Virus record (IMG/VR): IMGVR_UViG_2534681772_000009
Coordinates: 1 to 5,659 of that record
Direction: 5' to 3' (one strand)
Source: a virus
Taxonomy: Monodnaviria; Loebvirae; Hofneiviricota; Faserviricetes; Tubulavirales
DNA: 5,659 nucleotides
Within the stretch, counting starts at the first letter, position 1; the number at the start of each line of letters is the position of its first letter. Below the pieces are notes generated by a model. The model made no database searches. It saw nothing but the letters and a program-made list of their open reading frames with translations, and had not been told where the DNA came from. Of this stretch, positions 777 to 5,237 are shown piece by piece. The translations under genes and the position numbers were made by a program.

Positions 777-1514
777 GTATGACAGTGGCGGATGTAGTCT
801 TTGGGTGGAAGTGAACAGAAAACTATGGGAGGCTTGAGGGCGGATTTTATGGATATATATATTTAGAAAATGAAAGTCCAGTTTATCTAATGCCAGCACC
901 CGGTTTGCATAAACATTTTTTAATGAAGGCAATCTTTTTCGTTGATCCGAAACGTCGTCATCTACTGTGGTCACAATCAGGCTGAACTGATCCCCTCGGA
1001 GATTTGGTTTGATCGAATGACACTCCAAAAGCAGTAATTCACTGACACGCAATCCGTAATTTAAAAGCAATCTGCAAATCAGAAAATTACGTAGCTGGAT
1101 TTCACCAGCGGGGAAGGGATTGAGTGGGTTTTTCTTTGAAATTGAACCGGGTGTAATGATTTGGTAAAAAGCCATGACCATCTCAGCAGTCAGACTTCGA
1201 AAGCGTTTATGGGTCGTGCCATTGTTCATCTGACGAGAATGGGTAAGAGTACGGAATTCTGCCTTATGTATCGATAAACGTCCCGTTAACTGCGTGGCAA
1301 GTCGTGTAAGCTCTTTAGGCGTGCCATCTATATATCTCGGCGAGATATACGTGTTAATCAAATATCTGATAAAACGAATAACCGAATGTACATGCCTGAT
1401 ATTTGTACAACGTTGAGGCGTGGTCTGCGTAGTAGACCTTATGGTTAACGCTGGTACATATAAATGCGTATTTTCCAGATAATGAAAAAAGGCTGTAAGT
1501 TCATCAATGGCAAT
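777..1514 (-). pseudogene. Tyrosine recombinase (XerC/XerD / phage-integrase family), disrupted: C-terminal catalytic region removed by the IS2 insertion, N-terminus lacks a canonical start
   Basis: Minus-strand frame is open from 1514 to 777 and then reads through into the IS2 IRR (ORF-track 690..1361). It contains ...LRNFLICRLLLNYGLRVSELLLLECHSI..., which aligns position-for-position with box I of XerD (ALLELLYATGLRVSELVGLTMSDI), followed by RKRLPSL and FLFTSTQ in the expected places. Native sequence ends at ...RLHPPLSY just before box II and the catalytic Tyr. Upstream, IDELTAFFHYLENT resembles the start of the core-binding domain, but it is preceded by an in-frame TAG (1515-1517) and the first canonical start in frame is TTG at 1361. 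Confidence 0.6.
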
Positions 1515-1763
1515 CTAAGATATATTAACGGATATAAAAGCGGCTGGCGCGTGTGAGTATCCATCAGTGCCCATAAACGCTGCCGTTGGTTGATATTGAG
1601 TTGTGTAAGTATGAACACGCGGCACTTAACCTTATCAATGGTGTGGATATGAACAAAGTAACCGACAAACATAACGTCCTGCAAGAAGAAGATAGAGGGG
1701 TAGGTAAGTGTATGATTAATCGTATCCTGTGGCCGGTTATGAACTAAATGACCGACGGACTAA

Positions 1764-1791
1764 ATTTAACATAATATACATTATGCGCACC
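1764..1791 (-). other. dif: dif, 28-bp XerC/XerD site-specific recombination (chromosome dimer resolution) site
   Basis: 1764-1791 is ATTTAACATAATATACATTATGCGCACC; its reverse complement GGTGCGCATAATGTATATTATGTTAAAT is the canonical E. coli dif. XerD arm 1764-1774, central region 1775-1780, XerC arm 1781-1791 (plus-strand coordinates). Confidence 0.92.
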
Positions 1792-1922
1792 AATGGTAAG
1801 GATGGCAGAATCTGGCGGGAATCGTTGACACTGGCCGTCAACTGGCTACTATCGACAGTGATTCAAAATCATCCGTTTCTCCAAACGAATCAGAATCAAA
1901 TGTCTGTCAGCAGTAAGTGAAC

Positions 1923-1945
1923 GGCCTGACCTCACCAATCAGGCC
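1923..1945. repeat. GC-rich inverted repeat (7-bp stem GGCCTGA / TCAGGCC, 9-nt loop) overlapping the stop codon of ORF B
   Basis: Read directly: 1923-1929 GGCCTGA pairs with 1939-1945 TCAGGCC. No U/T tract follows on either strand, so not a canonical intrinsic terminator. Confidence 0.4.
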
Positions 1946-2180
1946 TGTTCATCCAGTTAGTTGGTAAATCTGTACCTGATACACGAGAATCAAACACCAC
2001 TTCTTCAGTGCCATCACCATGATGCCGGATAATCTGGTAACCGGATTGCGGGTTCTGGCTCTCAGCTTCATAAGCAGCCCGGAATGCTGGATCTTTGAGA
2101 AGCATCACTTTCAGCTCCTGATGTGTCATGAATTTTTCCATGATAAGCCCCGATGAATGCTGCCGCGCCGAATCAGCCAT
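1932..2180 (-). CDS. Hypothetical small protein (ORF B), 82 aa from the first ATG or 69 aa from MEKFM...; function unknown
   Basis: ORF-track 1932..2180. None of the three candidate ATG starts has a strong Shine-Dalgarno; the best is a weak GGGG upstream of the ATG at 2139-2141. No signal peptide. The N-terminal LLKDPAFRAAYEAE loosely recalls N-termini of some XRE-family antitoxin-like regulators, but no helix-turn-helix follows. Confidence 0.3.
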   Translation of the reverse strand: MADSARQHSSGLIMEKFMTHQELKVMLLKDPAFRAAYEAESQNPQSGYQIIRHHGDGTEEVVFDSRVSGTDLPTNWMNRPDW

Positions 2181-2574: not shown

Positions 2575-2662
2575 AATAAATCCTCTAAGTAACTGAATAC
2601 CTAGAAGATGTCGTACTGTTCATACCCCATAAAAGTTAACGCCATAATAAAAATCCATACAA

Positions 2663-3906
2663 TCAGTTCAGGTTGTCCCGGAACAGTTCACCGCTCCTCG
2701 CGGCGCTGCGGGGCGTCGCCCTGCTCCGGTCAACCTTTCTGACCTGAAGCATCACCATAATATCAGTCTTGTTGCTTTCACTGGTACGGGAACCGAAGAA
2801 GCTCCAGCCGGAACTGGCCTTACTGTCTTTCTGTTCAGCAAGGCCACCAAGTAAAATAATATCACCATCTGCAAGGCTGACTTCGGTTGTTACATCACGC
2901 TTGATAAGGGTTGGCGAGTTATTGACGCCGGTTTCAGTGGTCACAAAGTTGGAAAGCTGCTGCTGAATCTTGAGATCCATTGTCCGACTTTTGATTGATG
3001 GCGTCACGTTAAACAAAACACCGCTGGAACGATATTCAACGGATTGCGTTGTCGTATTGTTATTCACCGTAACACTGCCCAGTACTGGCACATCAGAGCC
3101 GACTGAAAAAGACGCTGAGGCATTATTTTTACCCGCAGTCGTGGCGCACTGACAACAGTAAAACGACTGTCGGTTTTCAGCAGATTGAAAATGGCATCAA
3201 TGGAGCCGGTTCGAATATTGATAAAATTATCCAGTCCGGCAGCACCAACTGAAATATTGAATTTATCAGACAGAATTTTAGCCGCTAAAAGAATGCCGGA
3301 GCCGTCAGACTGCGAGGTCTGAACCTCAAAAACATAACCAGAAACAACCACTTCATCACTCATCGTATCCAGCGAAGTGACCAGTGTTTTCAGGATGGCG
3401 ATATCCTCTTTCGTACCATAATAAACCAGAATATCACCGGTTCGATTGATGTTGTTGCTTGCCCCTGATGAACCTTTTAGCGAATCGTCAGAAATCACGG
3501 CTCCACTGTTATTGAAGGAGCCTGAAACGTAGCCGCCAAGAATATCAGACAGGTAGGCAACAGAACGGTACTGAGGCGTATAAGTCCATGTATAACGTGG
3601 CTTAACCGGCTCTTTCGGCGTATAGGGCGCGATAAAATCAACACCCTTTTTCGTCCATATTCGAATGTTCATATTGCCAAGATAACGGGTTACAAATTCC
3701 CGTTCATCAATATCAGGTGTTAACCTGAATGTAATCATTCGTTCATCATTAACAAGCTGTGGATCTAGCATATACGGGACTTTAAGCACCTCACTGTAAA
3801 TAAGAGAAATAGCCTCCGGTAGCTTGACTTTATTTAATTCAAGCTCTGACCCTGCGAAAGCACATGAAGAAAATAGTAGCGTTAATGCGAGTAAAATCTT
3901 TTTCAT
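2663..3906 (-). pseudogene. Filamentous-phage pIV-type secretin (gene IV), interrupted by a -1 frameshift (or base-call error) in a homopolymer run
   Basis: ORF 3064..3906 has a Sec-type signal peptide (MKKILLALTLLFSSCAFAGS) and an N-terminal secretin-like region ending ...RFTVVSAPRLRV. ORF 2663..3091, in the -1 frame, continues with the secretin C-domain (ASASFSVGSDVPVLGSVTVNNNTTTQSVEYRSSGVLFNVTP...DGDIILLGGL...). The frames meet at the A5 run at minus-strand 3130-3126; a sixth A restores ...SAPRLRVKNNASASFSVGSDVPVLG..., which matches the spacing of the equivalent GspD/pIV segment. The ATG at 3904-3906 overlaps the pI stop (TAATG). Confidence 0.85.
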
Positions 3907-4931
3907 TATTTTTTCCCCGTATAAAGCGTCACACGCTCACCATCAATAATTCCGCTCATCAACATCCCTTTGTAATTAAAACTGGATGCAGGAACGGCAC
4001 GCAAAACACCGGCACCGTTAACAAGAATCACAAACGCCCTGCCTTCACTGGTCATTCTCCCTGATATACGCCACTCGGTTGAAAGTGGCGGTTCAGCTGG
4101 TTCTGAGGGAGTATCTGGTGCTGGAGTAGCAGCGGAAGAACGAAACATGGCCGCATCACGTACATCTGTTGTAGTCAAATCTGGCGAGGGATCGCTTCGG
4201 CCAAACGTGCTGAAAAATGAGTAAATCAGCCAGCCTGACCCGATAAACATCAATGGAAAAAGCACAAGAAAGAACCTGACTTTGCCAGAATTCCAGATGC
4301 TCTGGCGTTTATCTGTCTGCTTTTCATTACCGTTATTTCCTTCATAACTTTTGTAAAGTTCAAAAATATCAGGGTTATATTTATTGCGATAACTGGTGAC
4401 GAGGTTGCTTTTATAGATTTTGTGGCCTGAATATACGTCAATGCAGTAATGATTATTCAGGCCCAACGCTTTCAGCTTGCGCATCCGGTAAGTTGTTTCT
4501 ATTTTGTCTTTCAGAAAGCGAGCAATATTAGAAAGTGACTGATTTACAATAACCAAATCACAGCTAATCCCCGTTTCAGGGTGCGTAAAATGACGATGTT
4601 CAGCAATAAATGATTTCTTCTCAGCCGTCATATCCTTATCACTACCGAAGATTCGCCATGCTTCATCGATAACAATTAAATCACCAAACTGGCAAAAGCT
4701 CCCTTCCCCACCTTTAAAAGGAAAGAAATCTGCTTTAAGCACATCATCATTATCCACAACAATAATTTCTCCCGTTGCATCAGGATAACGTTCGGTGATT
4801 TTATCTTTTTGTAAACCATAAATGTTCGTCACAACTCTCCGGCCGCTGGTAAATGCCGGAATAATGACATTGCAAACGGCTTCATAACTTTTTCCTGAGC
4901 CGGGTATGCCAATATATGCAGAAATAGCCAT
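3906..4931 (-). CDS. Filamentous-phage assembly ATPase pI (Zot family, P-loop NTPase)
   Basis: 341-aa ORF. N-terminal Walker A GIPGSGKSY, Walker B-like LIVIDEAW, and a central hydrophobic membrane span (VRFFLVLFPLMFIGSGWLIYSFF), the architecture of pI and Vibrio Zot. Sits between pVI-like and pIV-like genes as in Ff phages. Start ATG 4929-4931 has GGTGAG upstream. Confidence 0.9.
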   Translation of the reverse strand: MAISAYIGIPGSGKSYEAVCNVIIPAFTSGRRVVTNIYGLQKDKITERYPDATGEIIVVDNDDVLKADFFPFKGGEGSFCQFGDLIVIDEAWRIFGSDKDMTAEKKSFIAEHRHFTHPETGISCDLVIVNQSLSNIARFLKDKIETTYRMRKLKALGLNNHYCIDVYSGHKIYKSNLVTSYRNKYNPDIFELYKSYEGNNGNEKQTDKRQSIWNSGKVRFFLVLFPLMFIGSGWLIYSFFSTFGRSDPSPDLTTTDVRDAAMFRSSAATPAPDTPSEPAEPPLSTEWRISGRMTSEGRAFVILVNGAGVLRAVPASSFNYKGMLMSGIIDGERVTLYTGKK

Positions 4932-4934
4932 AAC

Positions 4935-5219
4935 TCACCCTATAACAGGAATACGTCGAATAACAAAACGAGTAGCCATTGCGGAGATAATCATACTAAT
5001 CCCCTGTGGTAATTTACTCAGGTTAATGAAGTACCAGAATCCGTCTGATAAATTGGCAAACAGCGATGAGAGATTGCTTGAATCTGGCAGTAACTCAACA
5101 AGGATTTCAACGAGGCCCTGGACTACAAAATACAGCGCAAAGAATACGACGAATTTAATAATCAATGACCGGAATACAAAACCTAACAAAGTATTTAATG
5201 CACTAATCAGAATTCCCAA
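4935..5219 (-). CDS. pVI-like minor coat protein (small, very hydrophobic); start codon uncertain
   Basis: 94-aa hydrophobic ORF between pIII and pI, the gene VI position in Ff phages. The in-frame start is TTG at 5217-5219. A well-placed ATG (5222-5224, 7 nt after AAGGAG, which directly follows the pIII stop) is one nucleotide out of frame across a T4 run. Confidence 0.6.
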   Translation of the reverse strand: MGILISALNTLLGFVFRSLIIKFVVFFALYFVVQGLVEILVELLPDSSNLSSLFANLSDGFWYFINLSKLPQGISMIISAMATRFVIRRIPVIG

Positions 5220-5237
5220 AACATAGTTGCACTCCTT

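Follow-up and report, generated by a model that had tools for sequence, protein, structure and literature searches.

Probable homopolymer miscalls in the secretin and pVI genes of a CUS-1/YpfPhi-type prophage adjoining a genuinely disrupted integrase gene

The window, meaning the whole 5,659-bp stretch of DNA analyzed here, corresponds to the complete contig AIHG01000043.1 of the draft assembly GCA_000250335.2 (2012, E. coli DECA collection). Accessions AIHA to AIHS belong to the E. coli DECA collection (PMC3558956), and 454 Titanium and Celera were used by the same center in a 2012 sister project (PMC3491183). The window contains the end of an IS2 element (IS3 family), a broken tyrosine-integrase gene, a dif site and a partial filamentous prophage of the CUS-1/YpfPhi type (Table 1). 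The IS2 segment encodes the transposase OrfB/TnpB (NCBIfam NF006918, E 4e-176, profile positions 53 to 301 of 301), with Pfam matches to rve, rve_3 and HTH_21, and it ends in an exact match to the IS2 right-end sequence (751 to 776). At the opposite end, the pIII-like gene is interrupted by the contig boundary; a full-length version is annotated at locus L001 (10457 to 12019). A repeat at the right end of the contig, as a possible cause of the break, was looked for and none was found. Between the secretin and pVI genes, the Zot/pI gene shows zero differences from its TW10590 counterpart, annotated there as WP_001007923.1 (PGAP).

Table 1. Coordinates of genes, sites and sequence changes in the window.
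Feature	Position	Strand	Evidence or remark
IS2, 3' part	1..776	+	TnpB ORF 13-765, cut by contig start; right inverted repeat 751-776
Tyrosine-integrase pseudogene	777..1618	-	5' deletion damage; 3' truncated by IS2 after codon 326 of 466
T6 run on the coding strand, Phe-Phe of the integrase	1485..1490	-	Correct length, no lesion
Junction of 136-bp deletion, true frame break	1515..1516	-	Coding nt 104-239, codons 35-80 removed
dif site (XerCD target), prophage end	1764..1791	-	Exact 28/28 match to E. coli dif; 0 expected by chance
Secretin gene (pIV/GspD-like), split	2663..3906	-	Pfam Secretin, E 5e-16; 280-aa and 142-aa ORFs
One-base deletion, secretin frameshift	3126..3130	-	A5 on the coding strand (T5 on +), A6 in relatives
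Zot/pI assembly ATPase gene, intact	3906..4931	-	Pfam Zot, E 2e-26
pVI-like DUF2523 gene	4935..5224	-	Pfam DUF2523, E 2.5e-20
Private substitution, pVI I87V	4964..4964	-	Comparison with relatives; 0/103 records
Private substitution, pVI F37L	5114..5114	-	Comparison with relatives; 0/103 records
Inserted base, AA (A in relatives)	5213..5214	-	Coding strand; 0/103 records
Inserted base, T4 (T3 in relatives)	5218..5221	-	Coding strand; 0/103 records
Inserted base, A4 (A3 in relatives)	5236..5239	-	Coding strand, non-coding site; 0/103 records
pIII-like (puvA-type) gene, 3' end	5238..5659	-	ORF list; cut by contig end

Integration at dif is indicated by the exact dif site at the prophage boundary. 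In strain SF-173, the match confined to the prophage starts at window position 1763, and in the prophage-free strain 99-3165 hipA lies beyond dif. Pfam matches identify the morphogenesis module, comprising the pIII-like, pVI/DUF2523, Zot/pI and secretin/pIV genes, while the annotations of L001 and of a further locus, L002, place a Rep/G5P module (gene calls Phage_CRI and Putative_G5P) upstream of it. The resulting order of Rep, G5P, small coat genes, pIII-like, DUF2523/pVI, Zot and secretin is that of CUS-1 from E. coli O18:K1:H7 and YpfPhi from Yersinia pestis, two filamentous prophages that XerCD integrates at dif. Two small ORFs following the secretin gene and adjoining an exact dif site are likewise shared with these prophages, as is the presence of tandem prophage copies in TW10590. 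As indirect evidence that the prophage is nearly identical to the published sequences, the O18:K1:H7 strain NU14 carries a prophage that is >97% identical over the stretches compared, and a Y. pestis secretin fragment falls within the same 90%-identity cluster as the window-type secretin. A search of a phage collection for the published CUS-1 and YpfPhi returned no match. Unlike CUS-1/YpfPhi, the window prophage adjoins a separate integrase island. The prophage is assigned to the CUS-1/YpfPhi type, which is widespread in E. coli.

The integrase gene is a true pseudogene irrespective of base calling, because it has suffered both a 136-bp deletion and an IS2 insertion. In intact relatives the gene starts at a GTG codon corresponding to window position 1618. 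One such relative, the 466-residue WP_001388361.1 (locus L004, 4125 to 5525), is named ‘site-specific integrase’ by PGAP; it scores 22.6 bits against the Phage_integrase domain (cutoff 27.1, E 1e-4) and matches NCBIfam XerA over a local stretch only (E 1.2e-8). A PDB sequence search returned no match, and neither did a Pfam search with the window fragment alone. Window 777 to 1515 is 100% identical to L004 4548 to 5286, and both L004 and another locus, L005, carry 136 additional bases between window positions 1515 and 1516. A TAG stop codon (1517 to 1515) is formed across the deletion junction, where microhomology was looked for and none was found. The same deletion is present in TW10590, an independent complete genome; it is a different kind of event from a one-base run change, and a real one. 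On the other side of the gene, similarity to TW10590 begins at window position 777, and the IS2-integrase junction (776/777) occurs in 0 of 5426 genomes. In the intact protein, the HITRH/HxxR motif (residues 362 to 366), GGWSH (residues 412 to 416) and LYAKR (residues 422 to 427) all lie beyond this junction, and the truncated window copy has lost the catalytic HxxR motif and the tyrosine nucleophile. Set against other E. coli genomic-island pseudogenes produced by IS insertion or deletion, an integrase cut by IS2 and lacking 136 internal bases is nothing unusual; its IS2 junction is unique among the genomes searched, and its deletion is shared.

The initial annotation had placed the break of this gene at the 6-nt run 1485 to 1490 and had left its pseudogene status to base calling, and neither view survives comparison with relatives. 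The run is the same in TW10590 and in 8/8 copies compared, and it is unchanged among the matches listed at 100.0% identity, which number at least 40. In relatives it is read in frame within AFFHY, residues 88 to 92 of the intact protein. The actual frame break, at 1515|1516, is 25 nt from this run, and the deletion and IS2 kill the gene whichever run length holds. The run was misread as a break because runs near frame switches are common by chance. The window contains 73 A/T runs of at least 4 nt, with a median spacing of 46.5 nt (roughly one per 50 to 75 nt), and a random interval of 30 to 40 nt contains such a run in 30 to 39% of cases. Given how frequent A/T runs are, the proximity of one to a frame switch is weak evidence when taken alone, and it proves nothing without comparison to relatives.

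In relatives, the secretin gene is intact (1245 nt) and encodes a single uninterrupted ORF of 414 residues; the window has two minus-strand ORFs, 3064 to 3906 and 2663 to 3091, overlapping by 28 nt. Here the initially proposed site of the frameshift, the A5 run at 3126 to 3130, is confirmed. The corresponding A6 tract (coding nucleotides 777 to 782) reads T6 on the plus strand in 102 of the 103 complete-genome records, versus T5 in the window, and the in-silico addition of one A restores a 414-residue protein that matches the TW10590 secretin exactly. Among the 103 records, T5 recurs only in TUM14759, where 5 of the 9 genes around it are flagged ‘frameshifted’. An exact look-up of the 280-residue frameshift product in a collection of 153 billion gene positions yielded no match. 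The 142-residue C-terminal fragment was recovered from 23 contigs, a biased sample in which the same ORF arises from any upstream disruption; what disrupts the gene differs among these contigs, ranging from Ns or a large deletion to contig starts and other indels. Variation in the length of the A6 tract extends to three further assemblies; A5 is found in four assemblies and A7 in one, and each of the other A5 cases has at least one additional homopolymer indel nearby.

At the pVI start, relatives read ATG TTT GGG ATT CTG (MFGIL) and continue into a single uninterrupted ORF of 95 residues. The window has three extra bases within 24 nt. One of them (5236 to 5239) follows the pIII stop codon and precedes the pVI Shine-Dalgarno sequence, and the ATG is offset by the other two. 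The native ATG (5224 to 5222) is indeed out of frame with the DUF2523 ORF, as first described, and the sole in-frame start is a TTG at 5219; the description of the defect as one base across a 4-nt run, however, does not hold, with three bases inserted and the ATG off by two. One sequence of the pVI start is common to 103/103 records, and the window version is found in 0/103. Likewise, the 94-residue window protein is known from one contig only, whereas the normal 95-residue protein is on at least 1000. Repaired pVI proteins carrying L37, V87 or both were sought among 15 billion proteins, and none was found.

Across a 3.9-kb stretch, the window thus differs from its relatives by four indels and two substitutions, and five of these six private changes fall within 273 nt. 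The neighboring 1015 nt (777 to 1791) are 100% identical to TW10590. All four indels lengthen or shorten a mononucleotide run (A6 to A5, A to AA, T3 to T4 and A3 to A4 on the coding strand); the chance that at least three of the four would land in A/T runs of at least 3 nt is ∼0.008. None of these indels occurs in 11 independent copies of the stretch, which represent 5 distinct sequences, five of the copies being mutually identical. All 11 are 3866 nt long, and a comparison among them gives 11 columns with substitutions and 0 with indels.

It is likely that this contig combines homopolymer miscalls at the secretin and pVI sites with a real deletion and a real IS2 insertion in the integrase, and the two prophage frameshifts are probably sequencing artifacts. 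Systematic base-calling error, originally put forward for three sites out of three at homopolymers, fits the secretin and pVI sites, where homopolymer indels exceed substitutions. It fails for the recombinase, whose lesions are a deletion and IS2 and whose run is not a break, which leaves the secretin and pVI sites only. Apart from the four indels and two substitutions, the window prophage is a haplotype present base for base in several other strains. Under the miscall explanation, the indels would stem from wrong homopolymer lengths called where a flow-based (454-type) assembly was thinly covered or of low quality. The contig is presumed to come from 454-type sequencing, an attribution drawn in part from the sister project of the same center. 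The true bases would be T6 at 3126 and, at the pVI start, TAAAGGAG...ATGTTTGGGATT (TAAAGGAGTGCAACTATGTTTGGGATT). If the indels are miscalled, the secretin and pVI genes would be intact in the living strain.

Miscalls of this kind are expected to be one-base changes within mononucleotide runs, and this is the case for 4/4 indels. They are also expected to be absent from independent assemblies, and the pVI version is found in 0/103 records and T5 in 1/103, the frameshift-rich TUM14759. Finally, indels should be in excess of natural variation, and the window's 4 indels and 2 substitutions compare with 0 indels among 11 variable columns. Drafts affected by homopolymer miscalls (454/Ion Torrent, early long-read) resemble the window in their ±1-base run changes, clustered in one draft contig, and in having more indels than substitutions; the error-rich TUM14759 even shows the same T6 to T5 change in the same run. 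The two substitutions and the 1-to-2 over-call of the window are unlike typical homopolymer miscalls.

Several observations run counter to an artifact. Substitutions are atypical of flow sequencing, yet two private nonsynonymous ones are present in pVI. Three over-calls within 24 nt (one 1-to-2 and two 3-to-4) would be an unusually high density even by 454 standards. Decay through the deletion and IS2 is real at this locus, so real frameshifts would be in character, and the A6 tract is variable in length in three further assemblies too.

An alternative is that slipped-strand mutation truly produced the four indels in a decaying prophage, with secretin and pVI inactivated alongside the integrase. 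Two lesions on this contig, the 136-bp deletion and the IS2 insertion, are beyond doubt, the two private nonsynonymous pVI substitutions would suit relaxed constraint, and replication slippage likewise favors homopolymers, so that indel position cannot discriminate between the two. This reading is nevertheless unlikely: it would require six private changes within 3.9 kb, five of them inside 273 nt and none in the adjacent 1 kb, in a haplotype that five assemblies otherwise share without difference, when natural variation among the 11 copies includes no indels and the pVI-region alleles and the secretin and pVI protein products are found nowhere else. The A5 and A7 alleles do recur in other assemblies, but the further homopolymer indel near each of the other A5 cases points to an error-prone platform. 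A narrower version, in which the secretin A6 tract is a real and recurrent slippage hotspot that lets lysogens silence virion production, the window prophage being truly inactivated, appears quite improbable; if true, lysogens would be switching off a costly outer-membrane export pore. As at slipped-strand contingency loci, a change in A/T tract length switches the window secretin frame off. Unlike at such loci, the secretin tract is just 6 nt long and invariant in 102/103 genomes, and no population-level polymorphism was seen.

It is also highly improbable that the consensus blends non-identical prophage copies that come from a tandem array or from the replicative form and were collapsed during assembly, in which case the odd bases would stem from differences among copies and not from base-calling errors in single reads. 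Tandem copies do exist in TW10590, YpfPhi forms dynamic arrays of 2 to 4 copies plus episomes (PMC4266046), and this short contig breaks off within the prophage with no local repeat. However, the pVI-region alleles and both substitutions occur in no other assembly, leaving the blend without its second component; the secretin run does not differ between the two TW10590 copies, and a collapsed repeat should have higher coverage and normally fewer consensus errors. Functional breaks, whether through programmed ribosomal frameshifting or phase-variable on/off switching at the runs, have a negligible probability. The occurrence of the A6 tract as A5, A6 and A7 across assemblies would be compatible with them, but the in-frame A6 in 102/103 complete genomes means that the frameshift is not conserved, tracts of 1 to 6 nt are shorter than known contingency tracts, and of the three pVI-region insertions one is non-coding and the coding pair fails to restore the frame. 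A programmed ribosomal frameshift was rejected on the uninterrupted 414- and 95-residue ORFs of relatives, and a phase-variable locus on the uniformity of the secretin run length (102/103) and of the pVI start (103/103).

The main value of these comparisons lies in annotation hygiene. The secretin and pVI ‘pseudogenes’ seen here are no evidence of a defective prophage, whereas the integrase lesions are structural and cannot be repaired by polishing. At the protein level, the RefSeq entry WP_000511824.1 (94 residues, seen once) is probably an artifact of the miscalled start region.

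The window spans all 5,659 bp of contig AIHG01000043.1 from draft assembly GCA_000250335.2, and compared locus L006 is exactly the same sequence in reverse complement. Accessions AIHA-AIHS are 2012 drafts of the E. coli DECA (diarrheagenic) collection (PMC3558956). Its filamentous prophage, of which only the right-hand part is on the contig, matches CUS-1 of E. coli O18:K1:H7 and YpfPhi of Yersinia pestis in the order of its genes, its position at dif and its habit of forming tandem copies (PMC4266046), and is carried by ~102 of the 5,426 complete E. coli genomes. Its closest relative, in the ETEC-like strain TW10590, matches window 777-5659. 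Exactly six differences separate the window from TW10590, and the same six separate it from SF-173, another prophage-bearing E. coli.

Features of the contig and its private differences from TW10590 and SF-173
Feature	Position	Strand	Remark
IS2, 3' part	1-776	+	NCBIfam 'IS2 transposase TnpB', E 4e-176
Broken tyrosine-integrase gene	777-1618	minus	
dif site	1764-1791		exact 28-bp match to E. coli dif
65-aa conserved ORF	1932-2129	minus	WP_001298440.1; between secretin and dif
82-aa conserved ORF	2326-2574	minus	WP_001399975.1; between secretin and dif
Secretin gene	2663-3906	minus	filamentous prophage
Zot/pI gene	3906-4931	minus	filamentous prophage
DUF2523/pVI gene	4935-5224	minus	filamentous prophage
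pIII-like gene, end part only	up to contig end 5659	minus	
Private indel	3126-3130		one base fewer
Private indels	5213/5214, 5218-5221, 5236-5239		one extra base each
Private substitutions	4964, 5114		

The secretin frameshift reported at the A5 run by the initial annotation is borne out. The coding strand reads A5 in the window versus A6 in 102 of 103 complete-genome matches to the prophage (records); A6 gives the 1245-nt, 414-aa gene of the relatives, and adding one A to the window restores a protein identical to the TW10590 secretin. Among complete genomes the short run recurs only in TUM14759, where five of the nine surrounding genes carry a 'frameshifted' flag, so that it is an error-rich assembly. 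The same A6 tract (coding nt 777-782, compared at loci L003, L010, L011 and L016) is A5 also in SRR29127155 and ERR4560751 and A7 in ERR10498724; these three were retrieved through an orphan 142-aa C-terminal ORF, a sample biased towards disrupted genes. Each A5 case, TUM14759 included, has a second homopolymer indel close by, in the two retrieved contigs a deletion.

The pVI start is indeed out of frame, and its region holds three extra bases rather than the single one first described. Relatives read TAA AGGAGTGCAACT ATG TTT GGG ATT CTG, opening a 95-aa protein with MFGIL; the window reads TAAAAGGAGTGCAACT ATG TTTT GGG AATT CTG, a version found in none of the 103 records. Two of the extra bases fall within the first four codons; the other is located between the stop codon of pIII and the Shine-Dalgarno sequence. 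Read from the ATG, the frame meets a stop after five codons, and the only in-frame start is a TTG at 5219, 12 nt from GGAG. The resulting 94-aa product (WP_000511824.1) occurs on this contig only, the normal protein on at least 1000 contigs. Both private substitutions are nonsynonymous, F37L (5114) and I87V (4964); neither occurs in the 103 records, nor, singly or combined, in a 15-billion-protein collection. Together with the three insertions they occupy a single 273-nt patch.

Because sequencing error and slippage both favour runs, the homopolymer position of the indels does not discriminate between them. Privacy, spectrum, clustering and draft context together favour error. The pVI-region changes are absent from all 103 records and the A5 run is shared with one. 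Over a 3.9-kb stretch, eleven other copies from independent assemblies, five of them identical to one another, share a length of 3,866 nt and differ in 11 substitution columns but in no indel column, versus four indels and two substitutions in the window. A segment of 273 nt holds five of the six private changes (~6e-5, corrected for choice of stretch), and the adjacent 1,015 nt equal TW10590 without difference. The contig is a 5.7-kb piece of a 2012 draft, and 454 Titanium with Celera is documented for a sister project of the same centre (PMC3491183). The indels thus probably stem from base-calling or consensus error in a patch with poor support. A simple 454 model does not fully explain the over-call density or the two private substitutions, the latter being beyond what miscalled homopolymers alone would produce. 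Real slippage mutation in a decaying locus is possible but unlikely. If the indels were true, the prophage would be unable to export virions, since disruption of secretion/morphogenesis genes in YpfPhi abolishes particle production (PMC4266046). If they are errors, it corresponds to the intact TW10590 haplotype, bar the two pVI substitutions should these be real.

Systematic base-calling error had been proposed for three of three discontinuities; it is favoured at the secretin and pVI sites and fails at the recombinase, where the run at 1485-1490 is correct. This run is the same in TW10590 and, among the matches listed, in at least 40 records at 100.0% identity, and codes Phe-Phe (AFFHY, residues 88-92) in strains 99-3165 and ETEC-2264, whose gene is an intact 466-aa 'site-specific integrase' (WP_001388361.1). 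In both strains 136 further bases stand between window 1515 and 1516, which makes a 136-bp deletion common to the window and TW10590. It takes out integrase coding nt 104-239 (codons 35-80), breaks the reading frame and leaves a TAG spanning the junction, and the ATG at 1502-1504 is an out-of-frame ATG within the intact gene. IS2, whose terminal repeat matches exactly at 751-776, interrupts the gene at 776/777, behind codon 326; the HxxR motif and presumed tyrosine nucleophile are lost through this insertion. The IS2-integrase junction occurs in none of the 5,426 genomes. The integrase is a pseudogene whether the indels are real or errors, and the locus as a whole combines a probable assembly artefact with pseudogenisation of an ordinary kind, through a deletion and an IS insertion.

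The exact dif forms the prophage boundary, with the unrelated integrase island on its opposite side. This island is found also without the prophage, and the gene is therefore not the prophage's own integrase; phages of the CUS-1/YpfPhi type integrate by host XerCD recombinases (PMC4266046). This dif-adjacent island (window 777-1618; loci L019 10288-16018 and L004 3761-5525) is present in at least ~140 complete genomes and at four plasmid places. In its full form, two tyrosine-integrase genes that overlap (464-466 and 516-521 aa) precede ORFs of 788 aa and 144 aa without Pfam match. In TW10590 (L001 5575-6450), the 291-aa deletion remnant, in which residues 1-175 of the 466-aa integrase are missing, is entered by PGAP as an intact CDS for a 'site-specific integrase' (WP_001059072.1).

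The 65-aa and 82-aa ORFs, neither with a Pfam match, probably correspond to the attR-adjacent ORFs of CUS-1/YpfPhi. The contig break (5659) falls inside the pIII-like gene; TW10590 has no tandem repeat there (L001 10800-11100) to account for it, and it may mean that coverage lapsed or that the source strain has another insertion at this point. TW10590 itself (L001 6984-16878) carries tandem prophage copies, in which the secretin, Zot and 82-aa genes occur a second time, in agreement with the 2-4-copy arrays reported for YpfPhi.
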